This document shows, piece by piece, positions 2,414 to 21,164 of a stretch of 59,690 bases of DNA. The notes below the pieces were generated by a model. It saw only the letters and a program-made list of their open reading frames with translations, had not been told where the DNA came from and made no database searches. Each line of letters begins with the position of its first letter. The stretch's first letter is position 1. This stretch comes from Candidatus Sulfotelmatobacter sp. (GTDB lineage: Bacteria > Patescibacteriota > Microgenomatia > Levybacterales > UBA12049). The stretch is from assembly GCA_035568375.1 (NCBI GenBank), contig DATMOG010000096.1, positions 1-59,690 on the forward strand, read 5' to 3'. The position numbers and the translations under genes are program-made.

Positions 2414-2440
2414 ATTTAAAAATATGTTTACTAATTATTT

Positions 2441-3757: not shown

Positions 3758-3761
3758 TAAA

Positions 3762-5823: not shown

Positions 5824-5825
5824 TA

Positions 5826-6092: not shown

Positions 6093-6098
6093 AGATAA

Positions 6099-6107
6099 AT
6101 AATATCA
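6099..6107 (-). promoter_or_regulatory. extended -10 TGATATTAT, 6 nt upstream of the GIY-YIG ATG
   Basis: Read directly from the sequence. Spacing implies a leaderless transcript. Confidence 0.55.
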
Positions 6108-6184
6108 ATCAAAAGAGTCAACGAAAAGTATCACTTTATTGCAAGCTAAAATAATCTTATAGTATTTTAATTTATAGTATTCTC

Positions 6185-6193
6185 TGCTATAAT
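6185..6193 (+). promoter_or_regulatory. extended -10 TGCTATAAT for the four-gene unit 6211-9405
   Basis: 17 nt upstream of ATG 6211, in the only sizeable gap before the unit. Confidence 0.5.
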
Positions 6194-6210
6194 TAGTTCA
6201 ACTTTATATT

Positions 6211-6774
6211 ATGAATTCAAAACAATACGATAAAAGAGAAAAAGTTCTGAGAAAGCTTACTGTTGAGAGAGCTAATCTAGGTAAAGCAGGAGAGTTTCTT
6301 GTTGCGGGGAAATTATTACTTAATGGATTTAACGTTTATAACGGAGCTATAGACGATGGTATTGATCTTGTCGCAAGAAAGAGAAGAAAATTCTACTATA
6401 TTCAGGTAAAAACCTGTCAAGATATAGATTATGATAGCGGGAAGTTTATGGCAAAAATTAATCTTAGTACTTTATCTAAATATCCTCATAAAAATACATT
6501 TGTAGTATTAGTGTTACATTTCTTAGGACCCACAACTTCACTCGATTTTATGGGAGACCACACAAAATATGATCAGGACTATATTGTCTTACCGGTTAAT
6601 AAACTAATTAGTTTTTTTCAAAAAGAAACAGGTGATATAACTTTTCGAATATATTATTCAATACTAATGGATCTACCGCAAAATACTCATTGGATCGCGA
6701 AACTAAAATATAACAAAAGAGAATTAATTTTGGATGATTTTATGCTTGATTCATTTTGGCAAATAGAAATATAG
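6211..6774 (+). CDS. PD-(D/E)xK endonuclease-like protein (PF11645-type)
   Basis: LGKAGEFLVAGKLLLNGFNVYNGAIDDGIDLVARKRRKFYYIQVKT fits the GxxGE...D...(Q/E)VK core of this nuclease family. First gene of a four-gene unit. Confidence 0.55.
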   Translation: MNSKQYDKREKVLRKLTVERANLGKAGEFLVAGKLLLNGFNVYNGAIDDGIDLVARKRRKFYYIQVKTCQDIDYDSGKFMAKINLSTLSKYPHKNTFVVLVLHFLGPTTSLDFMGDHTKYDQDYIVLPVNKLISFFQKETGDITFRIYYSILMDLPQNTHWIAKLKYNKRELILDDFMLDSFWQIEI

Positions 6775-6780
6775 ATAAAT

Positions 6781-8046: not shown

Positions 8047-8064
8047 TAATAATTTAAGATTAAT

Positions 8065-8745
8065 ATGAATACTTTTATAGACAATGATGATATTCAGATA
8101 CATAATGGTCTTAACACTTTGATTGCACAAGATGGATATTTACTGGCTAATAATCTTAGTGAACGATCAACAACACATAAATTGGCTGAGTATTATCAGC
8201 ATTATTTTTCAGAATGGAACGTAGATTGTGAGTATAATCGTAATCTCGGCGGACCCAAAAAAATTTTTATTGATCCAAAAGAAATTTTGCTTCAAATGGC
8301 AGATAATCTTGAAAAGAATGGTTATCTACTTCAATACCTCAAAGATACTAAAGTGTCGAATATTAAAGAGCAATTGATAGATTTAGAAAGACAGATGAGG
8401 AAGCCTAAACTTCGTTACATAAAAGAATTAGATATTGTATTATTTCTTCTTAAATTATCAGATGGTAATTACAAAAAAATGACTATCTATCCAGATATCA
8501 TAATCCACCATAGAGGGACAACCGATAATAATATTGTCATCGAAGCAAAAAAGAGTATAAATCAGGATTTCAAAGCACGCGCATATGATTTGGTTAAATT
8601 GATGACACTTGTCTCATCGAGTGATTTTCATTATAACCGCGGATATTTTATTGATTTGCCGGTAAAAGAAGATTGTAAAAAATTTCAAGGTTTTGCAGAA
8701 TCAAAATTTTTTAGTAAAGATGTTTACGAAATAGCAGCTAAATAA
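8065..8745 (+). CDS. restriction-endonuclease-like (PD-(D/E)xK) fold protein, putative
   Basis: 226 aa. VDCEYNR ... YPDIIIHHRG ... IVIEAKK gives an E / D / ExK arrangement. Otherwise an orphan. Confidence 0.45.
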   Translation: MNTFIDNDDIQIHNGLNTLIAQDGYLLANNLSERSTTHKLAEYYQHYFSEWNVDCEYNRNLGGPKKIFIDPKEILLQMADNLEKNGYLLQYLKDTKVSNIKEQLIDLERQMRKPKLRYIKELDIVLFLLKLSDGNYKKMTIYPDIIIHHRGTTDNNIVIEAKKSINQDFKARAYDLVKLMTLVSSSDFHYNRGYFIDLPVKEDCKKFQGFAESKFFSKDVYEIAAK

Positions 8746-8760
8746 TGCTATTGACGATAC

Positions 8761-9405
8761 ATGGCAGATAATAAACGTACACAAATTATTGACAAAAACC
8801 CAAACAAAATTCCTAACAATATAGTTATCACATGGGGAAATAACAAAGTTAGCTTAGGAAAATTTAGATTTGCTAAAAACGGTTCTTTCTATTTTTCTAC
8901 TCCACAATTTGATAAAACCTCAATGGAAATTGGTAGTGCATTGAAAGTAAAAGATACATTTCAAATAAAATCTAAAGAAGCGACATATCAAACAACAAAA
9001 GGAGTTCATTTATCTCTTCATCCACCGGACGATAAACATGAAAAAGGAATCTTACAGTTGACAGGAGCTGATTCTGCCAAACCAGTAGGAAAGGTTGTCC
9101 TTGATTGGTTTCCTGTTAAGGGTCCCTTTAAATTGTTCCATTTCTTTACATTACCGCTTGATTTAGCTCCAGTGGTGAATTCAAAAGCAATATTTACAAC
9201 CCCTATACCTGAGAAGTATAAAGATTCTTTAGAAATTATCGTAGATATTTTACCGATTGAAAATGGATTAATGTCTGTTCCAATGTATGACAATGATATT
9301 TGGAATTTTACTGGATTTTCTGCATTTGGTTATGCAGTTTCTACCCGCTTAGTTTTTGCAAATCAGAGGCTAGTACCACAAATATATTACATCAATGAGT
9401 TTTAA
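8761..9405 (+). CDS. hypothetical protein (214 aa)
   Basis: 15-nt gap after the upstream gene. Beta-rich orphan and last gene of the four-gene unit. Confidence 0.55.
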   Translation: MADNKRTQIIDKNPNKIPNNIVITWGNNKVSLGKFRFAKNGSFYFSTPQFDKTSMEIGSALKVKDTFQIKSKEATYQTTKGVHLSLHPPDDKHEKGILQLTGADSAKPVGKVVLDWFPVKGPFKLFHFFTLPLDLAPVVNSKAIFTTPIPEKYKDSLEIIVDILPIENGLMSVPMYDNDIWNFTGFSAFGYAVSTRLVFANQRLVPQIYYINEF

Positions 9406-9447
9406 TATATATTTAAACTGTGATTTGCAGGTATGCGAAATTGTTTT

Positions 9448-9548
9448 GTTAAAAATTTTACATGGTCCAGGAGCGCAGGTTCAAAATTTAGTTTCAAAAA
9501 ACTATATCAAACCAATCAACCCCAGACTAAATTCGAACCTGTTATAAT
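9448..9548 (+). repeat. intergenic module copy A
   Basis: GTTAAAAATTTTACATGGTCCAGGAGCGCAGG .. TTTAGTTTCAAAA .. CCCCAGACTAAATTCGAACCTGTTATAAT. Left and right arms are both present and it ends in an extended -10. Confidence 0.6.
9540..9548 (+). promoter_or_regulatory. extended -10 TGTTATAAT, 6 nt upstream of ATG 9555
   Basis: Terminal part of module copy A. Confidence 0.6.
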
Positions 9549-9554
9549 AACAAC

Positions 9555-10538
9555 ATGACGTTCCAAGATATTCCTCTTCTTTTTGAGATTCTCACGTCAG
9601 AGAATCTTACGCCTGTTTCATCTCATCCTGAGGGAGATCGCATTGTTTGCGAAGATGCTTCAGGTAATAAATTTTTTATGAAAGATTGTAGAGGTATTGA
9701 AGAGAAAATGTTCAATCAAGTCTTTCCTGCAATAAGAAGTCAAAATCTAAATTTTACTATTCTTGAATTGCCAGATTTTAAAAATGTTGTATCGCGAACA
9801 ATTCAACCGGGGCAACAGAGAGATTTTATTTTTGTAAATTATTATGATGGCACTACATTCAATGAGAGCTGGAACGAGACACATCCTCATGGATATGGCG
9901 GAAGAGCACTTGATATATCTTTCGCTGAAAAAGTCCTTAAAATAGTACAAGATTTTTCACTGATTAATCTTACGACTTTGGCACCTTTTAATCTTCCTAC
10001 ATTTGATTTTAGTGTTTGGAAGAACGATATTTTCCCATTATTATCTGCCAACCTCATTCAAAATGGCTCTTTAACACAAGATCATATAAATAAGGCTGAT
10101 ACAATTCTTTCGTCAGCAAATATTTTTCAACATTCTCAGACGATACTAACGAATGGAGATTTTTACCCCAGAAATTTTATCGAGCTTTCCTCAGGTAAAA
10201 TTGTTGTGATTGACTGGGAGGGCAGAGGAAGAGAACATATAAGATTAAATGGAGGTACGCATGCCTTTGCGAGTCAAAGAAATGCTTTTTTAAATTATAT
10301 TGAGAACCATGCTGCGTTTTTCTTTGTTCATATGTGGGGTAACCATGCAGTACAAAAAAAATTTATGACAGACATTACTCAAGCTTTTAATTTAACAGCT
10401 GATGATATCCAAGCTGCTATACTTATTAAATCTTTAGAACAAGGTGCAGCATTTGGAGGGGGTTTTCTCTCTCATAGGGAAGCAGAAATTTTTGTACATG
10501 CTCTTGAGCTAGATTATATAAATGATTTTATACAGTGA
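9555..10538 (+). CDS. phosphotransferase (APH/choline-kinase-like) family protein
   Basis: NGDFYPRNFI and VVIDWEG correspond to the catalytic loop (HGDxxxxN, with His replaced by Asn) and the metal-binding Asp segment of APH-type kinases. Confidence 0.6.
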   Translation: MTFQDIPLLFEILTSENLTPVSSHPEGDRIVCEDASGNKFFMKDCRGIEEKMFNQVFPAIRSQNLNFTILELPDFKNVVSRTIQPGQQRDFIFVNYYDGTTFNESWNETHPHGYGGRALDISFAEKVLKIVQDFSLINLTTLAPFNLPTFDFSVWKNDIFPLLSANLIQNGSLTQDHINKADTILSSANIFQHSQTILTNGDFYPRNFIELSSGKIVVIDWEGRGREHIRLNGGTHAFASQRNAFLNYIENHAAFFFVHMWGNHAVQKKFMTDITQAFNLTADDIQAAILIKSLEQGAAFGGGFLSHREAEIFVHALELDYINDFIQ

Positions 10539-10600
10539 TACGGGGGCTTTTTTAATACATCATGTATGTTTGCAATAATTGACTAGACTTCTGCATAACT

Positions 10601-10724
10601 AGCTCAGGATATTTAATTCTGTTATACCACTCAACCGTTCGGAAATCGTCAACTATTGCCAGCTTAATTTTTTAGCTTCAAAGAGTCAAAAAAGGCATTC
10701 ACTGTTTCGAACTTCTGGTATAAT
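10601..10724 (+). repeat. intergenic module copy B
   Basis: AGCTCAGGATATTTAATTC..GTTCGGAAATCGTCAACTATTGCCAGC..TTTTAGCTTCAAA..TTTCGAACTTCTGGTATAAT. 55/63 identical to copy C over 10601-10663. Confidence 0.8.
10716..10724 (+). promoter_or_regulatory. extended -10 TGGTATAAT, 6 nt upstream of ATG 10731
   Basis: Terminal part of module copy B. Confidence 0.6.
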
Positions 10725-10730
10725 TACTTA

Positions 10731-12107
10731 ATGAATTTGACCTCCTTAAACCCATCAAAAAACTTTGAAACCATAGGCGAAGTGGAAATATCTACAGAAA
10801 AAGAAATCACAGAATCGGTTGAACAAGCAAAAAAAGCATTTCTTCATTGGTCTACTATTACGATTAAAGAGCGGTCTGATGCAATTCAGTCCTTTGTAAA
10901 TATCGCAAAGATAAAAACTGAAGATATTGCTCAACTTATTGCAAAAGAAACAGGCCGCCCAATAAAAAGTGCGAGAGCGAACGTTACAGAGGGAATACGA
11001 TATTTTGAAGAGTATATAAGTATCGCTGATAAATATCTTTCACCTAAAGTTACTATTGAAACAGATAAAGAGCTTCACAAAGTATATCGTGAACCGTGGG
11101 GTGTTATTGCTTGTATTTGTCCATGGAATTATCCATTTCTCAATGTCGCATGGCAATGCGGACAAGCACTTATTGCGGGCAATACCATTGTTTATAAAAA
11201 TTCAGAAGAGAATCCTCTCTTCGCAAAACTGCTTTCTGAACTTATTGAAAAATCTGACATTCCAAATGGTGTATTTAATGTTATTTATGGTGACGGAAAA
11301 ACTGGAGATTTTTTGGTACACCAAGATATCAATATGATTTCATTTACGGGAAGTACAAAAGTGGGACAACATTTATCAAAAATTGCAGCTGAAAAATTTA
11401 TTCCAATCGTTACCGAATTAGGAGGATCTGCTCCTGGCATTGTTTTTGAAGATGTAGATATTGATGATAAATTGATTGAATACATTATCGAATTGCGGTT
11501 GACCAATAACGGACAAGCATGTGATGCAATCAAACGACTGATTGTTCATGAAAGTAAGTTTAAAGAGGTTGTCAAAAAAGTTTGTGATGTGATGAAAAAG
11601 AAAAAAATTGGTGATGCTCTTAGTGAAGATACAGATGTCGGACCACTTATAGCAAAAAGACAAATTGATTTACTTGAAGCACAAGTAAATGATGCAATTA
11701 AAAAGGGTGCAAAAGTAGAGATTGGTGCGAACACGCCAAAAGACCTGAAAGGAGCATATTATTCACCAACTGTTTTAACAAACATTAATCCGACTATGCG
11801 AGTCTGGCATGAAGAAACATTTGGTCCAGTTTTGCCAATTATTCCATTCAAAGATGAAGATCAATCAATTAGACAAGCAAACCATACTGAGTATGGTCTG
11901 AGTGCGCATGTGTTTACTAACGATAAAAAACGTTTTAAGAGAGTGGCTCGTCAATTACAAGCTGGCAGTGTTGCCCAAAATTTTACGGAGTATTGGAACT
12001 TCAATAATCCTTTTGGTGGATATAAAAAATCCGGTATGGGAAGAATACATGGTGAATACGGTTTTGACGATTTCACTCAAGTAAAACTAGTAGCTGAAGA
12101 AAAGTAA
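10731..12107 (+). CDS. NAD(P)-dependent aldehyde dehydrogenase
   Basis: 458 aa. ELGGSAP (catalytic Glu), NNGQACDA (catalytic Cys), FTGST and EETFGP are present. Confidence 0.9.
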   Translation: MNLTSLNPSKNFETIGEVEISTEKEITESVEQAKKAFLHWSTITIKERSDAIQSFVNIAKIKTEDIAQLIAKETGRPIKSARANVTEGIRYFEEYISIADKYLSPKVTIETDKELHKVYREPWGVIACICPWNYPFLNVAWQCGQALIAGNTIVYKNSEENPLFAKLLSELIEKSDIPNGVFNVIYGDGKTGDFLVHQDINMISFTGSTKVGQHLSKIAAEKFIPIVTELGGSAPGIVFEDVDIDDKLIEYIIELRLTNNGQACDAIKRLIVHESKFKEVVKKVCDVMKKKKIGDALSEDTDVGPLIAKRQIDLLEAQVNDAIKKGAKVEIGANTPKDLKGAYYSPTVLTNINPTMRVWHEETFGPVLPIIPFKDEDQSIRQANHTEYGLSAHVFTNDKKRFKRVARQLQAGSVAQNFTEYWNFNNPFGGYKKSGMGRIHGEYGFDDFTQVKLVAEEK

Positions 12108-12150
12108 TTTTTAGTAAGGGTTAAGAAATTGCATCGATTTTTGATAGACA

Positions 12151-12273
12151 AGCTCCGGATATTTAATTCGCTGATACCAATCCAAAGTTCGGAAATCGTC
12201 AACTATTGCCAGCAAATCAAATTTAGCCACAATTTAGCATTATATTGACATCTTTCTAGCTTCTTGGGATAGT
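12151..12273 (+). repeat. intergenic module copy C
   Basis: AGCTCCGGATATTTAATTC..GTTCGGAAATCGTCAACTATTGCCAGC..ATTTAGCCACAATTTAGC.. with a degenerate right arm ending in TGGGATAGT. Confidence 0.8.
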
Positions 12274-12279
12274 TGAGAT

Positions 12280-12993
12280 ATGACAAAGAAAAAGAAAACA
12301 TTTTCGACTTGGCTACGACAGGAAATTAATACTAAGCTCTCTTATGCCTTTATATTTTTACTTTTTTTGTTTTGTGTTTTAATAGCATACACATATTCTA
12401 TCCCATCGGTAGGTATCCCAATAGAATCTCAAATTCAAACTAACTTTCAAAATTTTATACAAAGTCTTACCCATGCGCCAAAAGAAATAAAACCAATTCA
12501 TATCAAAGTAGTAGGGACACCACTACCTAATCCCACCCAGATAGCATTAATAAGAAGTCGTGGACATATTGGATATCCAGAAATACCGGCATCTCAATCA
12601 CCTTATGAACAACTTCCAAATCAAAATTTTGATTTACTACGAATTTATCAAACGAGACAGTCAAATGAAAATACTGCAATTCTTACTAAAATAATTACTA
12701 ATCCTGTGGAAATAACAGAAATTTATGACGATATTAAAAGTTTGCCGCTTTGGCCACAAGGAGGAGGAACTATGAATTGTCCAATGGATCCGGTAAATCC
12801 ATTTGTATACATACTTAATTTTTATTCAAATGATATACTTAATGTTCATGCATTACTTCATATAGGAGGCTGTTCAAGTGTAAGTTTCACTAATTACTCA
12901 GCAAGAATGGCTTTGGGTACACAAGGAAAAAAATTGGATAATGACCTGCAACAAATTTTGAATTTATCAAAACAAGCGTTTTATGGATACTAG
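12280..12993 (+). CDS. membrane-anchored hypothetical protein
   Basis: N-terminal TM helix LSYAFIFLLFLFCVLIAY, then a Pro/Gln-rich linker and a Cys-containing domain. Orphan. Confidence 0.55.
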   Translation: MTKKKKTFSTWLRQEINTKLSYAFIFLLFLFCVLIAYTYSIPSVGIPIESQIQTNFQNFIQSLTHAPKEIKPIHIKVVGTPLPNPTQIALIRSRGHIGYPEIPASQSPYEQLPNQNFDLLRIYQTRQSNENTAILTKIITNPVEITEIYDDIKSLPLWPQGGGTMNCPMDPVNPFVYILNFYSNDILNVHALLHIGGCSSVSFTNYSARMALGTQGKKLDNDLQQILNLSKQAFYGY

Positions 12994-13046
12994 CGTTTTC
13001 TATTTATCTTAGGCACAAATGTTCATAAAAAGCCATTATTTTGTGC

Positions 13047-13168
13047 GTAAAAAGTTCCAAGATCGTCAAGGCTTGCCAGCTTTGATTTTTGCCACATTTT
13101 AGCCTCAGAAATTTCTCAAAAATGCCTTGACCAATCCTGGATTCGAACTGGTAATCTCATGATATAAT
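13047..13168 (+). repeat. intergenic module copy D (fullest copy)
   Basis: GTAAAAAGTTCCAAGATCGTCAAGGCTTGCCAGCT..TTTGCCACATTTTAGCCTCAGAAATT..GCCTTGACCAATCCTGGATTCGAACTGGTAAT..TGATATAAT. Confidence 0.85.
13160..13168 (+). promoter_or_regulatory. extended -10 TGATATAAT, 8 nt upstream of ATG 13177
   Basis: Terminal part of module copy D. Confidence 0.55.
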
Positions 13169-13176
13169 AAACACAG

Positions 13177-13527
13177 ATGACAGTTATTGATGAATATCTC
13201 CAAAAAATAGAAGCGTCAAAAAGGATACAATTAGAAAGAATTAGAAAAATTGCAAAACAAATTGTTCCAGATGCGCAAGAAGTAATTTCATATGGCATGC
13301 CAACACTACAGTTTAGAGGAAAATCTTTCTTAGGTTTTAATGTGCATACTAATCACATTGGTGTATATCCATATGGAGGAGAAGAAATTAGAGTATTCAA
13401 GGATAAGCTCATGAAACTTGGATACGGATTTTCTTCTGGAGCTATTAGAGTCCCATTTGATAAAGAAATTCCTGAATATCTTCTTAAAGAAATTATTCAA
13501 CTTAGAATTAAGAGATTATCAGAGTAA
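13177..13527 (+). CDS. DUF1801 (YdhG-like) domain protein
   Basis: IDEYL..IRKIAKQIVPDAQEVISYGMPTLQFRGKSFLGF is the YdhG/DUF1801 pattern. Confidence 0.75.
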   Translation: MTVIDEYLQKIEASKRIQLERIRKIAKQIVPDAQEVISYGMPTLQFRGKSFLGFNVHTNHIGVYPYGGEEIRVFKDKLMKLGYGFSSGAIRVPFDKEIPEYLLKEIIQLRIKRLSE

Positions 13528-13612
13528 AAAGTTCCTACATAGTCCAGAATTGCCAGCTGCGTTTTTAGCCTCAAATTCTTACAAATACTACCCTTGATTT
13601 GCACTAAATCCA
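13524..13612 (+). repeat. intergenic module copy E
   Basis: GTAAAAAGTTCCTACATAGTCCAGAATTGCCAGCTGCGTTTTTAGCCTCAAATTC..CCCTTGATTTGCACTAAATCC. The TAA stop of the DUF1801 gene lies inside the first bases. Confidence 0.8.
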
Positions 13613-13678
13613 TTTTATATAAAAAAGTATATTTCTATTTTGTGTATAATCCAACAGGGTCAAAATTTTTGAAGGAAG

Positions 13679-14296
13679 CTACGTAACGGTGATTAATACA
13701 GATTTGTGTATATCTTCCGAGGTAGTAAGCTCTTTAATCATAAAGTCAGCAACGTCGGCTCTTGCAATACCGTTAGACATGGAAACGGTTTCATTATCTC
13801 CAACAAGGCGTACTTTACCCCCTGGTTTTATCTTATCCAGCATTGTCGCATAGACAATGGTCCAATCAAGGTTTGAGGATTTGAGTAAGTTTTCACCTGA
13901 TTGTTTATCTAAAATCATACCCTTCATAACTCCCCCAACAAGCTTACCCAAAAAGTTAGGTTTATAATTTGGTCTAACGAGAAAAGACGAAAGCATAATA
14001 ACTCTCTTAACACCACTTTGCGTAGCGGCTGCTATTAAAGCTTGTGTTGTCTTTAGGATGACGTCATCATTAATTTTTACGCTGCCTAGTGTACTTAACA
14101 CTGCATCCTGTCCCTTTATTGCTTTTTGCAGATCTACTTTATTGCGAGCGTCTCCAACGATAACATGAACTTTTTTGGAAGCATGCAGTTTTTTAGGAGA
14201 TCTTACAAAAGCTGTTACTTGATGGCCTTGTGCTAATGTTTTTTCTATTACGTGTTGACCTGTTTTGCCAGTAGCACCTAGTACTAATATTTTCAT
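13679..14296 (-). CDS. NAD(P)H-binding NmrA/atypical-SDR family protein
   Basis: MKILVLGATGKTGQHV Rossmann motif. The track start 14317 was trimmed to ATG 14296 because a TGATAGAAT -10 box (14308-14316) lies inside the extension. Confidence 0.8.
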   Translation of the reverse strand: MKILVLGATGKTGQHVIEKTLAQGHQVTAFVRSPKKLHASKKVHVIVGDARNKVDLQKAIKGQDAVLSTLGSVKINDDVILKTTQALIAAATQSGVKRVIMLSSFLVRPNYKPNFLGKLVGGVMKGMILDKQSGENLLKSSNLDWTIVYATMLDKIKPGGKVRLVGDNETVSMSNGIARADVADFMIKELTTSEDIHKSVLITVT

Positions 14297-14320
14297 AGTG
14301 TGAAATAATTCTATCATAAA

Positions 14321-14368
14321 TAAAAAGTTCCGACATAGTCTACTAGTGTCAGCTGATGCTTTTTAGAA
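14321..14368 (+). repeat. intergenic module copy F (left arm only)
   Basis: TAAAAAGTTCCGACATAGTCTACTAGTGTCAGCTGATGCTTTTTAGAAG. Confidence 0.65.
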
Positions 14369-14488
14369 GTTTTTGTATTTACTTGTCGTGAGTATACTTC
14401 AATTTCTTCTCTACCTTTATCATTTATTGGTTTAAACTCATCATAGAACTAGGTTTCTCTTTGAGGCACTAAGACTGCTTTTCTATAT

Positions 14489-15640
14489 TTATTTCTCAGG
14501 TGTATTAGGTTGTGTCTGACCTTCTTTTTCAAGCCTCTTCGCGATTGTTTTAAAAATTTTATCAATGCCTTTTTGTTTGTTTACCGATATAAAAATTGGT
14601 GAGTATTGCGCATATTTTGTTCTGAGATCTTCTTCATCAAAATTTGATGCTATGTCAATTTTATTGAAGACATAGATCATATGGGCGTCAAGATGAATAC
14701 CAAGTTCATGGAGAATGTTATTAACTACATGTATTTTCTCCGCAATTTCAGAATCAGAAACATCGATTACGTGTAACAATATGTCTGCATGGACAGATTC
14801 CATAAGTGTTGATTTAAATGCCTGAATTAAGCGCGGTGGCAAATTTCGGATAAATCCGATCGTGTCAGTGAGTAAAATTTCTTTTTCAATTTGTGGGATA
14901 TATATTTTGCTGACGTTACTATCAAGGGTTACAAACAATGCGTTTTCGACGAGGACATTTTCGTTAGATAAAAGATTAAAGAGCGAGCTTTTGCCTGCAT
15001 TTGTGTACCCGACGATTGAGACTGTTTTAAATCCTGCTCGTTTTCGCTGGTCAAGTTGTGCATTATGAGCTTCGCTAATTTTATCAAGCTGATCAGTAAC
15101 TTTTTTTATTTCACCGCGCCAGTGGCGTTTCATAAGCTCAGTATTGGTTTCTCCGACTCCAAGCGTTCCTATTCCTCCACCTTGTCGTGACATAATCGCA
15201 CCCATACCATAAATTCTCGGTCCCATGTATCGCATTCGAGCAAGTTCTATTTGGAGTTTTGCTTCAGTCGTTTTTGCATGTTTATCAAAGATTTGCAGGA
15301 TTAAATCCATTCGATCCCAAACTTCGATTCGGGGATTTGCTTGTTGAAATCGTGTCTTAAGCGTATGGACTTGTCGAGGTTTAGCCATGGTATTCAACAC
15401 GACAACATCAATTGATAATTTTTTAATTTTTTCTAATACTTCAAGTACTTTTCCTTTCCCAATATATGTTGCTAGATCGGGATGTTCAAGATGTTGAATA
15501 ATACGGTCTGGGATCTCTCCTCCTAATGTTTTGATAAGTGATTCGAGTTCATCTCCTGTATTTATTGCTCTTTCCTTATTAGCTTGTGGATTAATAACAT
15601 GAATTGGAAGTACCCGAAGTGTCTTTTTTAGTTCAATCAT
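14489..15640 (-). CDS. hflX: GTPase HflX
   Basis: HflX N-domain followed by G1 GYTNAGKSSL, G3 DTIGF and G4 NKID. Confidence 0.9.
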   Translation of the reverse strand: MIELKKTLRVLPIHVINPQANKERAINTGDELESLIKTLGGEIPDRIIQHLEHPDLATYIGKGKVLEVLEKIKKLSIDVVVLNTMAKPRQVHTLKTRFQQANPRIEVWDRMDLILQIFDKHAKTTEAKLQIELARMRYMGPRIYGMGAIMSRQGGGIGTLGVGETNTELMKRHWRGEIKKVTDQLDKISEAHNAQLDQRKRAGFKTVSIVGYTNAGKSSLFNLLSNENVLVENALFVTLDSNVSKIYIPQIEKEILLTDTIGFIRNLPPRLIQAFKSTLMESVHADILLHVIDVSDSEIAEKIHVVNNILHELGIHLDAHMIYVFNKIDIASNFDEEDLRTKYAQYSPIFISVNKQKGIDKIFKTIAKRLEKEGQTQPNTPEK

Positions 15641-15767
15641 GTGAGTTCATTATAGCCTAACTGCATTGATAAAGAAAATAAACTCATTCGCCTATCGACA
15701 ACTGAGCGATCACGCTGCTTGCATATAAAAATGACTTCGATTAGATATTTAAAGATTAAAATCGGCT

Positions 15768-15877
15768 ATAAAAAGTTCCAAGATCGTCAAGGCTCTCCAG
15801 CTAATTTTTTTGCCTCAATTTAGCTTCAAATATTTGCAGAAAGTGGGATGACCAGACTTGGGTTCGAACTGGTAATT
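15768..15877 (+). repeat. intergenic module copy G
   Basis: TATAAAAAGTTCCAAGATCGTCAAGGCTCTCCAGCT..TTTGCCTCAATTTAGCTTCAAATATT..GGGATGACCAGACTTGGGTTCGAACTGGTAAT. Nearly identical to D in both arms. Confidence 0.85.
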
Positions 15878-15917
15878 TTAACAATTATCTTTTTTTGTAT
15901 CTTTCAATAAGTTACTA

Positions 15918-15926
15918 TGTTAAAAT
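15918..15926 (+). promoter_or_regulatory. extended -10 TGTTAAAAT, 7 nt upstream of ATG 15934
   Basis: Lies inside the longer ORF-track call (15895) and so supports the shorter start. Confidence 0.5.
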
Positions 15927-15933
15927 AATTTTA

Positions 15934-16524
15934 ATGAGAAAGATTATTGTTCTTGAATTTGTTACTCTTGATGGTGTTATGCAAGCTCCAGGTGGACCTA
16001 CTGAAGATATAAGTGGTAACTTCAAATTCGGTGGATGGACAGCTCCCTACTTTGATGAAATGTCGGGGAAGGAAATGGAGAAGCAGATGAAAGGAGAATA
16101 CGATCTTCTTCTTGGACACAAAACGTATGATATCTTTGCGGGATATTGGCCAGAGCACACAGAAGGATGGCCTCAAGTAAATAAAATTACAAAATATGTT
16201 GTCTCAAAAACCTTAAAAAAACCTACGTGGGAAAACACTATCGTGGTAAAAGATATCAAAGAGTTAAAAAAGTTAAAGAGCTCAAACGGTCCAGTCCTAC
16301 AGGTGTACGGAAGCAGTAATCTTGTTCAGACATTAATGGAGTATGATTTGGTAGATGAATTTTGGCTTAAAATATTTCCTATTACTCTTGGTATGGGAAA
16401 ACGATTGTTTGATAAAGGTACAATACCTGCTTCCTTCATCCTCGTTGAATCTAAAATTTCCCCAAGTGGTGTAATTTTTGCTTCATACAAACTTGTAGGA
16501 GAAGTCAAAACAGGATCATTATAA
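15934..16524 (+). CDS. dihydrofolate-reductase-like RibD C-terminal domain protein
   Basis: MRKIIVLEFVTLDGVMQAPGGP, LLLGHKTYD and VYGSSNLVQTL. Start moved to ATG 15934, 7 nt after TGTTAAAAT. Confidence 0.8.
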   Translation: MRKIIVLEFVTLDGVMQAPGGPTEDISGNFKFGGWTAPYFDEMSGKEMEKQMKGEYDLLLGHKTYDIFAGYWPEHTEGWPQVNKITKYVVSKTLKKPTWENTIVVKDIKELKKLKSSNGPVLQVYGSSNLVQTLMEYDLVDEFWLKIFPITLGMGKRLFDKGTIPASFILVESKISPSGVIFASYKLVGEVKTGSL

Positions 16525-16562
16525 AGTTACGAGTATTATTTATTAATAAGCAAAATTATTTT

Positions 16563-16607
16563 GTTAAAAATTTCCTACATAGTCCAAAAGAGCCAGCTAT
16601 TTTAGGG
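16563..16607 (+). repeat. intergenic module copy H (left arm)
   Basis: GTTAAAAATTTCCTACATAGTCCAAAAGAGCCAGCTATTTTAGGG. Confidence 0.75.
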
Positions 16608-16686
16608 CATGATGTGCGTATGATTGGGAACTTTTTGCTTACTAACCCTCAGAAAACTTTTCTTACCAAAAAATATGTTGAGCTAA

Positions 16687-17373
16687 TTAATCGGATTTAA
16701 CTTGAAGAATAAGTGGATTAAAGTTAGTATTTTTGTCAAAGTAATCTTCATGTTCTACTTTCTTTAATTTATTAACCGTCCAATAAGTAATTGGAGTCAT
16801 GATTACTTCAATAGCAACTTTCAAGAACCATGCTGATAGAATTGATTGTATTAGAAGTCCAGTGGGAATAACATTATAGAGTGCAATTATATAAAACAAT
16901 GTTGTATCCGTTGCTTGTCCAGCAATGGTTGAGCCAATAGTTCTCGTCCATAAATATTTACCTTTTGTTAATAATTTCATCTTAGCCATTACAAAATCAT
17001 TTATGAATTGTCCTCCAAAAAGAGCGATCCATGCTCCGATGGTGATACGAGGTACTTGAGATAACACAAAAGTATAAGCTTCATTCCCTTTAAATCCTGG
17101 TGCAGGAGGTAATAATGTCGCTAATTCGAAAAATATTGCCATAATAATTGTTGAAAAGATTAATATCCAAGTCGCCCGCCGTGCTTGTTTATATCCATAT
17201 ACTTCCGTGAAAATATCCCCAAATATATAATTGACAGGGATACAAAGTGATGCCGCCGAAAAAGTAAAAATCCCAATCTGAATTATTTTTCCGGATGTGA
17301 CGTTAACAATTGCCATCATTGTTATGTCTAAGAAAATGAAAAGATTCAAGTATTTATGAGTTTTTTTATTCAT
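16687..17373 (-). CDS. yhhQ: queuosine-precursor transporter (YhhQ/VUT, DUF165)
   Basis: Polytopic membrane protein with the GDIFTEVYGYKQARRATW signature. Confidence 0.8.
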   Translation of the reverse strand: MNKKTHKYLNLFIFLDITMMAIVNVTSGKIIQIGIFTFSAASLCIPVNYIFGDIFTEVYGYKQARRATWILIFSTIIMAIFFELATLLPPAPGFKGNEAYTFVLSQVPRITIGAWIALFGGQFINDFVMAKMKLLTKGKYLWTRTIGSTIAGQATDTTLFYIIALYNVIPTGLLIQSILSAWFLKVAIEVIMTPITYWTVNKLKKVEHEDYFDKNTNFNPLILQVKSD

Positions 17374-17413
17374 AGAGAGATTTTAATCGATAGTAGAGTT
17401 TTTAACCAAAATT

Positions 17414-17422
17414 TGTTAAAAT
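17414..17422 (+). promoter_or_regulatory. extended -10 TGTTAAAAT upstream of the TrmB-like gene
   Basis: Contains the in-frame TAA that closes the reading frame upstream. 76 nt before the first ATG. Confidence 0.4.
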
Positions 17423-17497
17423 CTCATCAGTATAGCTAATTTATTACAAAAATCATTACCACCGCAAAGTCTTTCTATATATTCTTTATTAGAAAAT

Positions 17498-18157
17498 ATG
17501 GGAAGATTGTCAGCAAAAGAGATAGGAGCGAAATTAAATATTCTCCCCCATGCAGTCTATAGAGCAATTAAACCTTTGGAGGAGTTAGGCATTGTATTGA
17601 AACTAGCGACTTACCCGACTATCTTTGAAGCTCAATCTATACAAGATTCAGCTGATTTACTTTCATTAGAAGTTAAGGAAAATTTTCAAGAAATATTTTC
17701 AGGGAAGAATCAAGGGTTTAGTAGCCCACAATTATTAAAACTGTCTTTTATAAAAAATAGAAGTGATTTATTAGAAAAAACAAGTAAAGATATACAAAAT
17801 GCGAAAGAAAGTATTGATTTTATTGTTTCTGGTCTTGAGATACCAGCAGAATCTGTGCTCTCTTTTAAACAAGCGTTTGAAAATGGAGTAGCTATAAGAG
17901 CAGTTATTCAAGACTGTTCTGAAGCAACTGAAGGACTACTGAGAACATGGGATAAATTAGGAGTTATGGTCCGTTATTATCCCAATATGGAAGCACGCAT
18001 TTTTATTATTGATAACGAAATTGTATATTTTACTTCATATAATCCCGAAGAAAAAGTTAGTGGTATAGGAGTGCGGTTTCATTATGCGCCATATGCAAAA
18101 CTTATGAATGAACTTTTCGAACAGAGATGGAAATTATCTTCGCCGATTTTGTTTTAA
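17498..18157 (+). CDS. TrmB-family transcriptional regulator-like protein (start uncertain)
   Basis: LSAKEIGAKLNILPHAVYRAIKPLEELGIV is a TrmB-type winged HTH. Similarity to the family continues upstream of the first ATG (see findings). Confidence 0.6.
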   Translation: MGRLSAKEIGAKLNILPHAVYRAIKPLEELGIVLKLATYPTIFEAQSIQDSADLLSLEVKENFQEIFSGKNQGFSSPQLLKLSFIKNRSDLLEKTSKDIQNAKESIDFIVSGLEIPAESVLSFKQAFENGVAIRAVIQDCSEATEGLLRTWDKLGVMVRYYPNMEARIFIIDNEIVYFTSYNPEEKVSGIGVRFHYAPYAKLMNELFEQRWKLSSPILF

Positions 18158-18183
18158 CTAAATTTGAAGAGATAATTCTGTAT

Positions 18184-18290
18184 GTAAAAAATTCCTACAA
18201 CGTCCAGGATGGCCAGTTGCGTTTTTAACCACAAATTAGACCAGAAATATTAATTCATTTCTTATAAACACTATCTTGGATTCAAAGTGC
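18184..18290 (+). repeat. intergenic module copy I
   Basis: GTAAAAAATTCCTACAACGTCCAGGATGGCCAGTTGCGTTTTTAACCACAAATTAGACCAGAAAT .. ATCTTGGATTCAAAG (right-arm remnant). Confidence 0.75.
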
Positions 18291-18386
18291 AAGTTTGCTT
18301 CGTTCTTGCCTGAAATGAGATTTATTTACGTAGTTATTCATAAACTAATCTAAGTTTGAAATTCGAGTTTCTTTTGAAGGATCTAG

Positions 18387-19043
18387 TTATATTTTATTTA
18401 AAAGTTTATAGCCAATTATAGCCCACACTTCTCTGACAGAATCCCTATTAGTGAAATTATTTTTATCTTGTTCCCAGCAGGGGCTTTTTATATCCGCAGA
18501 CAAAGAGTATTTGTACTGTAATTTTGAAGCGACAAGTCCAGCACGAGCATTATGGTATGGATCTGTAACTATAATAATTGAATTAAAATGGGCTTCAGTA
18601 AGTATTTTTTGAGAGAATAAGAAGTTTTCGTATGTTGAGGTTGATTTATTTTCTAGTAAAATAGCCGATGTTGGAACACCAGCTTCAGTAGCGATTTTTT
18701 TCATGGCTTCGGCTTCATTTGCATAAACCTCTTTATCGTTTCCTCCTGACATAAGAATTTTTGAAGCGTAGTGGTTTTTGTAAAGAGAAACTGCGTGATC
18801 TACTCGGGCAACTAGACAAGGATTTAAACGAGGGTGTGCGACAAAGCCATGTTGGCATATAGGACCATAGCAAGAAATACCACCGTAGACGCTGCCACCC
18901 AGAACCATGATAATATCCGATTTTACTTTCGTATCTTGTCCAGTCTGATTTTTGACATACATTAATAATGAGAAAAATAGAAAGACAAGTAGAAGTAGGA
19001 TGAATGTAACAATTATCGAAAGTATAACGAAAAATTTCTTCAT
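18387..19043 (-). CDS. DUF218 (YdcF/ElyC/SanA-like) envelope protein
   Basis: VLGG, ARVDHAVSLYKNHYASKILMSGG, STSTYEN and IIIVTDPYHNARA. Start set to ATG 19043 (MKKFFVIL anchor), 4 nt after the upstream stop. Confidence 0.8.
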   Translation of the reverse strand: MKKFFVILSIIVTFILLLLVFLFFSLLMYVKNQTGQDTKVKSDIIMVLGGSVYGGISCYGPICQHGFVAHPRLNPCLVARVDHAVSLYKNHYASKILMSGGNDKEVYANEAEAMKKIATEAGVPTSAILLENKSTSTYENFLFSQKILTEAHFNSIIIVTDPYHNARAGLVASKLQYKYSLSADIKSPCWEQDKNNFTNRDSVREVWAIIGYKLLNKI

Positions 19044-19047
19044 AATT

Positions 19048-19458
19048 TTATTTACAGACCACAACAGTATTTGCAGTAAAGCTGCCATCGGAATTTGGTC
19101 CCCCGACTAGCGTTACGCTGTCTCCAGTTTTCAAATCGGATAGAGAACCGGAGCCGGTTGAGGTTTTGATCGTTTCCTGATCTGTAAGATGGATAATTTG
19201 ACTGCTGCTGTCGTCTTTTCGCTTCATAATAAATGTTTTGCTTCCAGTACTAACGATCTGTCCGTTGCCACCGGTGCCACCGCAAGGATCTCCATTTTGG
19301 GAAATTTCACCCTCTCCATTGCCAATGTGGTCAGTCTGAGCGTCACCTACACTATATCCGATACTCGCTTGCAGTTGAATCCTGTGATAAACCTTGTACC
19401 CAAAGAATGCAACCGCTGCAACAACAATAACTAAAATGGTTACATAAATTAGCTTCAT
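19048..19458 (-). CDS. exported Gly/Ser-rich protein, unknown function
   Basis: Signal anchor MKLIYVTILVIVVAAVAFF. A strong Shine-Dalgarno GGGAGGGTGAG (19464-19474, minus strand) is rare in this window. Confidence 0.6.
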   Translation of the reverse strand: MKLIYVTILVIVVAAVAFFGYKVYHRIQLQASIGYSVGDAQTDHIGNGEGEISQNGDPCGGTGGNGQIVSTGSKTFIMKRKDDSSSQIIHLTDQETIKTSTGSGSLSDLKTGDSVTLVGGPNSDGSFTANTVVVCK

Positions 19459-19553
19459 TATCTCTCACCCTCCCTAAAAAGATGAAGGATTATGCATACT
19501 GTATTTAGCAGAAATGTTGTAGTAAACATATGCAAGATTATATCAGTAATGCA

Positions 19554-19629
19554 TATAAAAAGTTTGTACTGTACATGTGTAGTCCAACAGAGTCAGCTAA
19601 GTGCTTAGCCACAACTTAGCCTCAAAAAG
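19554..19629 (+). repeat. intergenic module copy J (variant left arm)
   Basis: TATAAAAAGTTTGTACTGTACATGTGTAGTCCAACAGAGTCAGCTAAGTGCTTAGCCACAACTTAGCCTCAAAAAG. Confidence 0.6.
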
Positions 19630-19677
19630 TTCTTTTATTCTTACAAACAGGAGATTGTGATGAATTGTTTTCTCAAG

Positions 19678-19686
19678 TGTTATACT
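19678..19686 (+). promoter_or_regulatory. extended -10 TGTTATACT, 6 nt upstream of ATG 19693
   Basis: Lies inside the longer ORF-track call (19657). Confidence 0.55.
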
Positions 19687-19692
19687 TATAAT

Positions 19693-20382
19693 ATGTCATT
19701 GAAAATTCTCTCTTGGAATATCTGGTTTGATAGTAATTTAAATAATGTTAATACTTTTTTAGAGAACATTAATGCAGACATTATTGGATTGCAAGAAGTC
19801 ATGCGAAAAGATAATAAGATACAACTTTCAGATTCTCTATTCAAAGAATATCAGTTTGTCTATGCTCCAGCTTTTCAAATAACAAAAAATGGTAAAACAG
19901 TTGATGTTGGCAACGCTATTCTGAGTAGGTATCCTATACTTGAATATAAAATTCATAATCTATCTCAAACAGATAATCGTATTGCTATAGAAGCAACTAT
20001 AAAAGTTAATAATAAAATTTTGCAAGTTGTTTGCACTCATCTTGTACACACTCATCAACAGGCTTCTCAAATACAAGATATACAGGCAGAAAATTTAGTT
20101 AAAATTCTTTCAGAAACAAATTCAATTCTGGTGGGTGACTTTAATGCGTTGCCAGAAAGTAATGCAGTGAAAACAATAAGCAAAATATTAAGGAACACAG
20201 ATAGTAAACTCCTCCCAACTTGGAGTGTTTATCCTGAAGGTTGTAATAGCTGTTTACCACTAAAAATAATTTATAAATTAGACAATATCTTTGTTAGTAA
20301 AAATTTGAAGACAAGTTCATATCAGGTAGAAGCCTCAGATGCTTCAGATCATTTGCCTATTTCAATAATTATTGAAATATGA
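19693..20382 (+). CDS. endonuclease/exonuclease/phosphatase (EEP) family protein
   Basis: ILSWNIW, GLQEV, GDFNA and SDHLPI motifs. Start moved to ATG 19693, 6 nt after TGTTATACT. Confidence 0.8.
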   Translation: MSLKILSWNIWFDSNLNNVNTFLENINADIIGLQEVMRKDNKIQLSDSLFKEYQFVYAPAFQITKNGKTVDVGNAILSRYPILEYKIHNLSQTDNRIAIEATIKVNNKILQVVCTHLVHTHQQASQIQDIQAENLVKILSETNSILVGDFNALPESNAVKTISKILRNTDSKLLPTWSVYPEGCNSCLPLKIIYKLDNIFVSKNLKTSSYQVEASDASDHLPISIIIEI

Positions 20383-20391
20383 GTTATTGCT

Positions 20392-20410
20392 GTAAAAAGT
20401 TTGTATCTAT
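20392..20410 (+). repeat. intergenic module copy K (truncated next to the transposase remnant)
   Basis: GTAAAAAGTTTGTATCTAT matches only the first ~18 nt of copy J. Confidence 0.4.
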
Positions 20411-20492
20411 TTTTTCTCTTTTGCTAGTTTATTTTTCTTCCTCATCTGTATTCCAGCCTTTGCTTTCAGTTCTTTGGCAATAAATAGCCTTG

Positions 20493-21010
20493 TTACGAAA
20501 TAGCATGATGACAATGATGTGAGAAATACTTTTTATTCCACAGGAGATCATTTATGGAGAGATGGTAATTCCACAGACCTGCTGATAAGAGGATCATTTT
20601 GCTATCTATGAAGGGTTTGTGATTGCGAAGCTTTTCACTCATACACCGATACCTCTTGATGCCACCAATAGCATGTTCAAACCAATCCCCTGTAGTTGAG
20701 ACAAGTTTGTTTATCTCCTTATCTTCATACATTAATGGATTCTTTTCTGACTTTTTCTTTTGAATCAATATATTTTTATGTACTTTCGCTTCTCCAATAA
20801 ATCCGGCATGGGTTTGCTCTCAAAATCTTTTAGTCATCTTCTGATAGTCCGTTCATTCCTCAATAATACTCCTACAATATCTATGCATATTATTCCACGA
20901 TCACGCATCAGCATTGCTTGCGCTTTCAACCGTATGAGAATTAATGGTGAAGCTTTGAAGTATCCATGAAGTATTTGTTTTTCTTTTTCTGACAAAATTC
21001 TTTTGATCAC
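20493..21010 (-). pseudogene. decayed transposase (HTH N-terminus + DDE-type C-terminal tail, core deleted)
   Basis: 21010-20834 encodes VIKRILSEKEKQILHGYFKASPLILIRLKAQAMLMRDRGIICIDIVGVLLRNERTIRR. An in-frame TGA then falls where transposase HTH domains have Trp. After a frameshift, 20768-20493 encodes ..GDWFEHAIGGIKRYRCMSEKLRNHKPF..LLSAGLWNYHL, a transposase C-terminal pattern. Confidence 0.6.
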
Positions 21011-21061
21011 TATCTTAGTGTATCAAAACCGGACATTTTGTTTTTCAATCGCTATATGCTA

Positions 21062-21164
21062 ATAAAAACTTTGGGACAAGTCTAATATTTCCGCTAATAG
21101 TTGTCAAGAAATTCAGTTACATCAAAGTTACTGATATTAATATCAGTTCGAAAAATGGTAATAT
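21062..21164 (+). repeat. intergenic module copy M
   Basis: ATAAAAACTTTGGGACAAGTCTAATATTTCCGCTAATAG .. ATCAGTTCGAAAAATGGTAATAT. Left and right arms are recognisable, but the central TTAGCC units are missing. Confidence 0.5.

Follow-up and report, generated by a model that had tools for sequence, protein, structure and literature searches.

An integron-like array of gene cassettes in a Microgenomates-type genome, probably assembled by site-specific recombination

We analyzed a 59,690-nt stretch of contig DATMOG010000096.1 (the window), which carries an array of short gene units separated by copies of one intergenic repeat between approximately 9.4 and 21.2 kb. This region works as a cassette array. 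Each copy of the repeat, which we call a module, is a composite of two cassette ends, and related arrays elsewhere are anchored at tRNA genes; these points go beyond the preliminary description of this DNA. That description had proposed a cassette array in which polarity belongs to the array rather than to its genes, and the proposal is supported by the data presented here. Its suggestion of a site-specific cassette system other than integrons is favored as well, because cassettes recur with other neighbors, homology between loci breaks at single bases, and related arrays start at tRNA-Gln. We conclude that the region is probably an integron-like array of mobile cassettes, built by serial site-specific recombination with tRNA-Gln as the primary site. 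Coordinates below are positions in the window, and L-numbers are labels of related loci (for example, L001 is the Logan SRR7098092 assembly).

Results and Discussion

A co-oriented family of modules in the window

A profile built from eight copies of the repeat was used to scan the window and found nine copies on the plus strand, at 10631, 12181, 13048, 13524, 14321, 15769, 16565, 18184 and 19556, with E-values ranging from 1e-4 to 2e-15. A tenth copy at 9450 (copy A) received a weak profile score (E 0.57) and proved on inspection to be a diverged full copy, with the TTAG.TTCA unit and the TTCGAAC..TGTTATAAT arm both present. The same profile detected no copies on the minus strand and none in the other 48 kb of the 59.7-kb window, and a degenerate 33-nt pattern matched the window five times, compared to 0.00 matches expected. 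Cores in the window are 60-85% identical to one another. The independent L001 assembly is 100% identical to the window across 8.4 kb covering copies B-G, and therefore the order of the array is not an assembly artefact.

Twelve copies had been claimed previously, all on the plus strand. The strand assignment holds, as do ten of the copies, nine of them strong and one (A) diverged. Copy K (20392) is truncated, having only the first ~14 nt (GTAAAAAGTTTGTA) in common with copy J before it stops beside a transposase remnant. Copy L (21062) matches about 19 of 35 consensus positions, was undetected by every profile, and is doubtful. The TTAGCCNCA units reported in the preliminary description are present. 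Its statement that every intergenic gap carries a copy was slightly overstated, because the gap at 17374-17497 inside the mixed unit has none. The modules are as follows, with a caret marking the joint where it is shown.

9448-9480, plus strand: core of module A, diverged, ending CAGGT; followed by TTAGTTTCA and TTCGAACCTGTTATAAT, then the ATG at 9555
10577-10664, plus strand: module B, a 53-nt left arm and core 10630-10664 (..TTGC^CAGCT)
12127-12214, plus strand: module C, core 12180-12214, ending CAGCA
13047-13155, plus strand: module D, core 13047-13081 and a long right half containing TTTGCCACA, TTAGCCTCA, GGATTCGAACTGGTAAT and TGATATAAT, then the ATG at 13177
13524-13558, plus strand: core of module E, with a TAA at which the DUF1801 gene ends; TTAGCCTCA is next
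14320-14354, plus strand: core of module F; homology with L112 begins at 14351, right after the ...GTGTC^AGCT joint
15768-15876, plus strand: module G, core 15768-15802 and a long right half
16563-16598, plus strand: core of module H; homology of the RibD_C unit with L036 and L016 stops here, after GCCAGC
18184-18218, plus strand: core of module I, ending CAGTT; then TTAACCACA and TTAGACCAG units and a decayed GGATTCAAAG arm
19555-19598, plus strand: core of module J, with a 9-nt insertion; then TTAGCCACA and TTAGCCTCA; E 1e-4
20392-20405, plus strand: K, truncated core start (~14 nt, as in J), missed by the profile
21062-21095, plus strand: L, doubtful, diverged core-like sequence with a TTCGAA..TGGTAAT arm downstream, missed by the profiles

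Module C belongs to the same subtype as module B (79% identity across 87 nt), and modules D and G are 79% identical across 108 nt. Core A's left flank (9432-9458) and the flank of core H match at 89% identity. The units between modules measure 477-1620 nt, and six are on the plus strand, three on the minus strand and one is mixed, in agreement with the sizes and strand tally given previously.

Homology between loci breaks at one position in the core

We surveyed inter-locus alignments with at least 75% identity and found that homology tracts extending from the upstream side end at core positions +30 to +37 in 20 of 29 cases, with 13 ending exactly at +33. Tracts on the downstream side never begin before core +29. 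Any two modules share the core, and thus this pile-up of end points cannot by itself fix the crossover, but three base-precise junctions do. Loci L014 and L018 are 100% identical for 5.8 kb from ^CAGCT on, and upstream of the joint (...GC^CAGCT) they carry unrelated cassettes with different core subtypes. The HflX unit of the window is 92% identical to L112 from position 14351, the base after ...GTGTC in core F. This shared tract runs through core G, which is of the same type in L112 but longer by an 18-nt insertion; the sequences part immediately after CAG(C/T)T, and the neighbors differ on both sides. The RibD_C unit is homologous to L016 and L036 from its ATG through the gene, the spacer and core H, with the homology stopping after GCCAGC; the modules upstream of this unit differ between the three loci. 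Between L012 and L063, a further breakpoint coincides with a core-like sequence that has diverged.

These base-precise junctions assign the first ~30 nt of the core to the upstream cassette and the sequence from CAGCT onward to the downstream cassette. The alignments thereby place the apparent crossover at or just before CAGC. Judged from the same junctions, the core goes with the upstream gene, and the TTAGCCTCA motif and an extended -10 box go with the downstream gene. One or two TTAGCCTCA-type (TTAGCC-like) units are found at the start of the downstream cassette in 50 of 142 copies, compared to 6 in shuffled sequences. Divided in this way, the array in the window contains the following cassettes, with a transposase remnant at its right end.

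9481-10659, plus strand: cassette 1, kinase-fold (APH-like) gene 9555-10538
10665-12209, plus strand: cassette 2, aldehyde dehydrogenase gene 10731-12107 (Pfam)
12215-13076, plus strand: cassette 3, gene 12280-12993 for a 237-aa orphan protein
13082-13553, plus strand: cassette 4, DUF1801 gene 13177-13527, with homologs in L090 and L112
13559-14349, minus strand: cassette 5, NAD(P)-binding NmrA-like gene 13679-14317, antisense to the modules
14351-15802, minus strand: cassette 6, HflX GTPase gene 14489-15640, antisense to the modules; whole unit present in L112
15803-16598, plus strand: cassette 7, RibD_C / dihydrofolate-reductase-family gene 15931-16524, shared with L016 and L036
16599-18213, mixed: cassette 8, Vut_1/YhhQ gene 16687-17373 (minus strand) and a gene with HTH_11 and PLDc_2 domains 17498-18157 (plus strand)
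18219-19593, minus strand: cassette 9, DUF218 gene 18387-19088 and a 136-aa gene 19048-19458, both antisense
19599-20391, plus strand: cassette 10, endonuclease/exonuclease/phosphatase (EEP) gene 19657-20382
20493-20768, minus strand: DDE_Tnp_4 remnant at the right array end (E 2.5e-5; profile positions 92-158 only)

Pfam searches bore out the gene identities suggested earlier (ALDH, DUF1801, NAD_binding_10/NmrA, HflX, RibD_C, Vut_1, DUF218 and EEP), and the decayed transposase is likewise found where the array had been said to end. The kinase-like assignment of the first gene agrees with its NGDFxPRN..IDWE motif; this gene has no Pfam match. Cassette 9 is partly common to L040, where it has the same arrangement relative to the modules. 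The HflX of the window clusters at 90% identity or more with proteins named as Levyibacteriota, and its RibD_C protein has 80-90% identical relatives in Microgenomates and Woesebacteria metagenome-assembled genomes (MAGs). These matches suggest that the window probably derives from a Levyibacteriota genome, an assignment that is provisional because the two genes are cassette-borne. HflX is normally a housekeeping GTPase. L109 encodes an HflX at 96% identity (10001-11152) within a TrmB-ADH-HflX-TacA context that has no cassette ends, and the L112 homolog (10001-11158) lies inside a cassette. An ordinary chromosomal gene therefore occurs both outside cassettes, in L109, and inside them, in L112 and the window, a possible example of cassette birth or loss.

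We also observed inverted core fragments (GGGAACTTTTT..) at a few joints: in the window at approximately 16627-16639, 3' of core H (GGGAACTTTTTGC), in L009 just after 7049, and in L017 just before 3017. They lie tail to tail with a forward core or a tRNA end, beside some antisense or first cassettes, and may be the trace of cassette inversion at the near-palindromic CAGCTG joint. Other antisense cassettes, for example NmrA, have no such fragment.

The module family occurs in other genomes and metagenomes

We scanned public collections of GTDB species genomes, metagenome contigs and viral contigs with a core pattern in which many positions, CAGC among them, are fixed. The same ~35-nt core, ATAAAAAGTTCCYACATAGTCAACCAGTGC^CAGCT, was present at 95 other loci, 10 of them in GTDB MAGs and 85 in metagenomes, and there were no matches in viral contigs. 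Judged from sample names, the metagenome loci derive chiefly from groundwater or sediment. The GTDB loci are found in MAGs named Levyibacteriota, Daviesbacteria, Microgenomates and Patescibacteria, together with five that are labeled 'uncultured Gammaproteobacteria' (L003, L004, L006, L009 and L010), which have canonical cores and 33-42% GC. This last label is doubtful because the gltX region of L009 is syntenic with that of L078, an unlabeled locus resembling the candidate phyla radiation (CPR). Were the label right, the element would cross phyla.

The consensus core of all loci is ATAAAAAGTTCCYACATAGTCAACCAGTGCCAGCT. Polarity is uniform in 33 of 33 multi-copy loci, and the median spacing between copies is 796 nt over all loci. 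Contigs of 0.36, 0.61 and 1.02 Mb each contain one exact-pattern locus, no long contig gave more than one or two loci, and the copies in the window are all within 12 kb; the repeat is thus clustered and not dispersed. Uniform spread through the genome in both orientations, which the preliminary description would have taken as a sign against a cassette system, was not seen, and each array has a single polarity. Iteration of the core profile collapsed it onto the canonical subtype with loss of sensitivity, and divergent cores are therefore under-counted.

The genes within these arrays encode small enzymes, GNAT, NUDIX, HIT and PEBP proteins, and toxin-antitoxin pairs (RelE/Phd, BrnT/A and TacA), a content that resembles that of sedentary cassette arrays. 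The RibD_C gene recurs at 11 loci with differing array neighbors. L014 contains a duplicated cassette (127-738 and 2027-2639, 96% identical) whose copies are bounded by cores within one array. The divergent core subtypes of this duplicate were missed by the first profile, indicating that arrays are punctuated more densely than profile counts suggest.

Related arrays are anchored at tRNA-Gln

ARAGORN identified 43 tRNAs in the 95 loci, of which 19 are tRNA-Gln. The tRNA-Gln lies upstream of modules and in the same orientation in 17 of these 19 cases, usually one cassette away, and in those 17 loci the right-half sequence (TTAGCCTCAAAA..TGATATAAT) follows the 3' end of the tRNA. The tRNA-Gln genes end in ...CCCGCAGC or ...CCCAGC; L006, for example, reads ttcgtaTTAGCCTCAAAATGATATAAT. 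On the 570-kb contig of L108, a gene for a GIY-YIG nuclease is followed after 4 nt by tRNA-Gln and then by three cassettes, whose cores correspond to the segment of the resident tRNA from T-loop to discriminator with a 5-nt insertion, and are identical to it at up to 14 of 14 nt. GIY-YIG cassettes that adjoin tRNA-Gln terminate in repeats of the tRNA 3' end, 18 nt long in L079 and 9 nt in L084. The array of L018 is headed by a 45-nt partial tRNA-Gln, and in L061 the core profile matches the tRNA-Gln 3' end itself. Within the window, the whole stretch of module B aligns with tRNA-Gln positions 12-72 (z 2.5, p ~0.015); the similarity of module C to tRNA-Gln does not reach significance (p 0.155).

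Between canonical cores and tRNA-Gln, common sequence is limited to GTTC and the terminal CAGC. Derivation from the tRNA is therefore apparent in the sequences of some core subtypes, and for the canonical core we infer it. Two features hold generally: cores and tRNA have a terminal CAGC in common, and the tRNA stands at the array head.

The anchoring tRNA-Gln is often near gltX, the gene for glutamyl-tRNA synthetase, which is on the side away from the array (L005, L009, L020, L066 and L078). The long right halves at 13130-13155 and 15850-15876, as well as copies in L002, contain CCTGGATTCGAACYGGTA, which on the minus strand resembles a tRNA T-loop (GGTTCGAATCC); the minus-strand matches of the tRNA-Gln profile are weak (E 0.7-1.4).

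A model for array assembly and the observations that weigh against it

We propose the following model. Read 5' to 3', a cassette would begin with (C)AGC(T/A), often followed by one or two TTAGCCTCA-type units and sometimes by a further arm of ~45 nt. An extended -10 promoter belonging to the cassette would come next, then a gene or gene pair pointing either way, and a terminal element of ~30 nt (ATAAAAAGTTCCYACATAGTCAACCAGTGC or a variant) would close the cassette. A module would then form where the 3' end of a cassette meets the 5' start of its neighbor, and would consist of a left arm that resembles the tRNA-Gln end, the CAGC crossover, and a right arm carried by the cassette. The 3' end of tRNA-Gln, which also has CAGC, would be the first joint and would play the role of attI. 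New cassettes would enter at the tRNA-Gln or at any internal joint, which would impose one fixed polarity whatever the direction of the gene. The canonical core would descend from the tRNA-Gln 3' end. The recombinase would be encoded elsewhere in the genome or on a helper element and act in trans. Targeting of tRNA 3' ends is typical of tyrosine integrases, and we would therefore rank a trans-acting tyrosine integrase first among candidate enzymes. Serial recombination of this kind would explain why polarity is single and independent of gene direction, why breakpoints fall at one base, why cassettes are duplicated and shared, and why copies are confined to one cluster per long contig.

Several observations weigh against this model. 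The canonical cores do not track the local tRNA-Gln, matching it at 7.3 of 14 positions compared to 6.9 of 14 for tRNA-Gln of other loci. Among the cores of the window only B is significantly similar to tRNA-Gln, with D borderline and all others short of significance. The window has no tRNA and no tRNA fragment at its array head, and on the far side of tRNA-Gln in the related loci are housekeeping genes (Era-type GTPase, gltX, methyltransferase and aminotransferase). Because the scanning pattern fixes core positions, their conservation among the public matches is partly built in. Inspection of the core revealed none of the dyad symmetry that is typical of simple tyrosine-recombinase sites, and no circular cassette or empty site was observed. 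As phmmer queries we used XerC, XerD, lambda Int, IntE, IntA and PinE, taken from annotated E. coli and lambda records, and a search of all six-frame open reading frames (ORFs) of the window and of ~600 kb of module-bearing loci found no tyrosine recombinase. Finally, the identity between window cores is only 60-85%, and this array may be inactive. With no tRNA in view, cores that have diverged, the last of them cut short, and a transposase remnant at its end, it is probably sedentary and in partial decay, and may be a fossil.

Promoter-like signals and the regulatory alternative

The modules could instead be lineage-specific regulatory or insulating elements that are kept by selection, in which case the mosaic structure of the arrays would be secondary and due to ordinary homologous recombination between the conserved 35-nt stretches in DNA that cells had taken up. 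Candidate-phyla bacteria are considered capable of DNA uptake, and no array-linked recombinase was found. Moreover, many modules carry signals that could serve the adjacent genes. An extended -10 box is present 3' of the crossover in 58 of 142 copies (~41%) compared to 6 in shuffled sequences, often just before the next ATG. The TAA of the module is the stop codon of 22 upstream genes. In the window, the gene 13177-13527 ends inside core E, as previously described. Approximately 75% of flanking genes are co-oriented with the module. Over all loci, 113 upstream genes are co-oriented and 34 antisense, and the corresponding numbers for downstream genes are 109 and 42, giving an antisense share of 23%-28%.

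Module polarity therefore correlates with gene direction without being bound to it: convergent genes flank a module in 31 cases, divergent genes in 23 and two antisense neighbors in 7. We folded nine modules and found no stable or shared hairpin on either strand (z -2.1 to +1.1 relative to shuffles), and no inverted repeats were found within modules. The window contains no Rfam families, and its array shows no excess of sigma-70-type promoter pairs (55 compared to 50.2 +/- 7.2 expected) or of intrinsic terminators (5 compared to 6.2 +/- 2.3 expected), with no terminator at a core. The idea of a terminator/promoter insulator, raised in the preliminary description, is thus not supported as the main explanation, with the qualifier that the right half of many modules bears an extended -10 box for the next gene. 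Homologous exchange should scatter breakpoints, yet a single position accounts for them, and the core goes in every case with the upstream unit and never with the downstream one. To the left of the L014/L018 junction and of the left junction between the window and L112, no sequence is shared that could support such an exchange. The start at tRNA-Gln and the confinement to one cluster per long contig are also unexpected for a general signal. For these reasons we consider a regulatory origin unlikely.

The genes that follow modules A-D have a promoter box 6-10 nt before the ATG, which is of the TGnTATAAT type except for C, where it is TTGACA-17-GATAGT. The stretches from promoter box to start are at 9536-9557, 10715-10733, 12245-12282 and 13158-13179. 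The short distance between box and ATG suggests that these genes may produce leaderless or near-leaderless transcripts.

Candidate enzymes and a nuclease-driven alternative

The sole recombinase match from the phmmer searches was a truncated large serine recombinase with Resolvase and Recombinase domains, encoded in L071 (6108-6866) at a distance of 5.7 kb from tRNA-Gln. L071 is one of two loci in which the module is opposite in orientation to tRNA-Gln. A Pfam screen of 140 large ORFs from related loci showed no recombinase family among the 25 commonest families listed. The kinase-like and orphan proteins of the window array were considered as hidden recombinases and rejected: neither has relatives in the PDB, and the first contains a motif of the kinase fold.

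Near the anchor, just one gene is recurrent. It encodes a small GIY-YIG nuclease of ~88 aa and is found in 8 of ~95 loci including the window. Those beside tRNAs (~80-100 aa) are as follows.

L108, 3508-3828: GIY-YIG gene directly before tRNA-Gln
L107, 7023-7337: GIY-YIG gene overlapping tRNA-Asn
L079, 835-1244: GIY-YIG gene, first cassette after tRNA-Gln, 70-100 nt away
L084, 2497-2908: GIY-YIG gene, first cassette after tRNA-Gln, 70-100 nt away
L010, 3365-3806: GIY-YIG gene, first after tRNA-Lys, 70-100 nt away

Several of these tRNA-adjacent genes have a common GC-rich, hairpin-like leader.

The GIY-YIG nuclease is a candidate for the enzyme, yet it also looks like an ordinary cassette. Its recurrence beside tRNA-Gln, tRNA-Lys and tRNA-Asn raises the possibility of homing-like movement, in which the nuclease cuts the CAGC joint and repair copies a cassette in. 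We regard this mechanism as improbable. The protein is a bare catalytic domain with no recognizable DNA-binding part, its gene is missing from most of the array loci sampled, and in L079 and L084 it is flanked as an ordinary cassette would be. The gene in the window is 3.4 kb from the array and on the other strand. Furthermore, homing requires homology on two sides, and the junctions lack it on the left.

Relationship to known systems

The arrays resemble chromosomal integrons and clusters of attC sites lacking integron integrases (CALINs), such as those with the Vibrio VCR repeats, in many respects. Both consist of mostly single-gene cassettes in one orientation with an antisense minority, and both contain toxin-antitoxin cassettes. 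In both, a site at the 3' end of each cassette travels with the upstream gene and recombines at its 3' edge, cassettes are duplicated and shared between arrays, and a fixed primary site is found at the head. In contrast, the site here is linear and ~35 nt long, whereas attC forms an R''/L''-L'/R' hairpin, and the crossover is C^AGCT and not G^TTRRRY. The array begins at the tRNA-Gln 3' end instead of at attI beside intI, no IntI or other tyrosine recombinase was found nearby, and many cassettes bring an extended -10 promoter and a conserved 5' motif (TTAGCCTCA). The array layout of an integron is thus present, and the attC hairpin, the GTTRRRY crossover and a linked IntI are absent, which agrees with the misfit to attC and the lack of a visible integrase noted previously. 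A true integron array without integrase and with atypical attC sites would account for the co-oriented cassettes and their toxin-antitoxin pairs, but is very improbable given the lack of any inverted repeat or hairpin on either strand (z ~0), the different crossover, the cassette-borne -10 boxes, the anchoring at tRNA and flanks free of tyrosine recombinases.

The view that the repeats are decayed 5' fragments of a minus-strand gene (..LAILDYVGTFY.., ~40 aa in B and C), prompted by a minus frame that is open and similar in most copies, is scarcely credible in light of in-frame stops in several copies, the lack of a conserved start codon, DNA-level conservation across unrelated contexts, the precise joint that ends the stretch and the alignment of the B arm to tRNA-Gln; the open frame is a by-product of DNA-level conservation.

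The site-specific cassette array that we favor also has features in common with elements that accumulate at tRNA genes. Cis-mobilizable elements (CIMEs) are integrase-less derivatives of integrative elements that accrete in tandem at tRNA 3' ends (PMC5704250). Accreted elements and the arrays described here both consist of head-to-tail units, which in loci related to the window lie at a tRNA 3' end and are separated by direct repeats that, for some core subtypes, copy the tRNA end; the units have no integrase of their own and would have to be moved in trans or in cis. However, CIMEs are decayed integrative and conjugative or integrative mobilizable elements (ICEs or IMEs) of several kb, usually in one to a few units, whereas the present arrays have ten or more units of 0.35-2.6 kb that contain ordinary single genes and no mobility-gene remains. 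Pfam searches of these units found no traces of decayed ICEs or IMEs, only ordinary enzyme, transporter and toxin-antitoxin genes. In addition, the separating site is a conserved family found in many genomes and not a copy of the local tRNA.

Tycheposons occupy tRNA-anchored islands in Prochlorococcus (bioRxiv 10.1101/2020.12.28.424599). They too form hypervariable islands beside particular tRNAs in streamlined genomes, with plug-in cassette cargo; repeated integration at the same tRNA pushes older material inward, and partial tRNAs are scattered. Tycheposons carry their own tyrosine or large serine recombinase, often together with replication genes and cargo of up to 10+ kb. Here, nearly every gene is bracketed singly and no recombinase was found in the units. 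Repetitive extragenic palindromes and the mosaic elements built from them (REP/BIME), as well as miniature inverted-repeat transposable elements (MITEs), are also short conserved intergenic sequences near gene ends, but these have palindromic or inverted ends and occur genome-wide in both orientations. The modules are non-palindromic, strictly co-oriented, clustered and coincident with breakpoints in gene content.

The literature, which was covered incompletely, yielded no description of single-gene, tRNA-anchored cassette arrays in Patescibacteria. We tentatively suggest, with somewhat less than even confidence, that the arrays represent an undescribed, Microgenomates-type platform for gene capture that is independent of integrons and serves as a main route for accessory genes. 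Such a platform would combine a tRNA-Gln site, a linear ~35-nt element derived from the tRNA end and present at the end of each cassette, cassettes with leaderless-type promoters, and an enzyme acting in trans, either a new recombinase family or the GIY-YIG nuclease, that exchanges cassettes at CAGC.

Patescibacteria have genomes of ~1 Mb with few recognized mobile elements, and their gain of accessory genes is poorly understood. If the proposal is correct, it would provide a concrete mechanism for genome flexibility in candidate phyla, represented on ~100 independent groundwater or sediment contigs. It would also constitute a second, independently evolved answer to the gene-stockpiling problem that integrons solve, and would connect integron cassettes to tandem integration at tRNA genes. 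With the core sequence and the precise base of crossover now defined, arrays become searchable and their activity open to assay.

The left flank of the array

The left flank of the array in the window (1-9405) looks like a defense-type island. Its features are as follows.

2441-3757: DUF5677 and alpha/beta-hydrolase protein
5826-6092, minus strand: small GIY-YIG gene
6211-6774: PDDEXK_5 protein
6781-8046: 421-aa protein with an excisionase-type helix-turn-helix
8065-8745: PD-Lambda-3_A-like protein

The operon at 6211-9405 was considered as possible array machinery and rejected, because the 421-aa protein family occurs alone in unrelated contexts and its neighbor matches the PD-Lambda-3 defense protein. 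Relatives of the 421-aa protein with ~50% identity are found in Anaerolineales, Thiodiazotropha and Dyadobacter.

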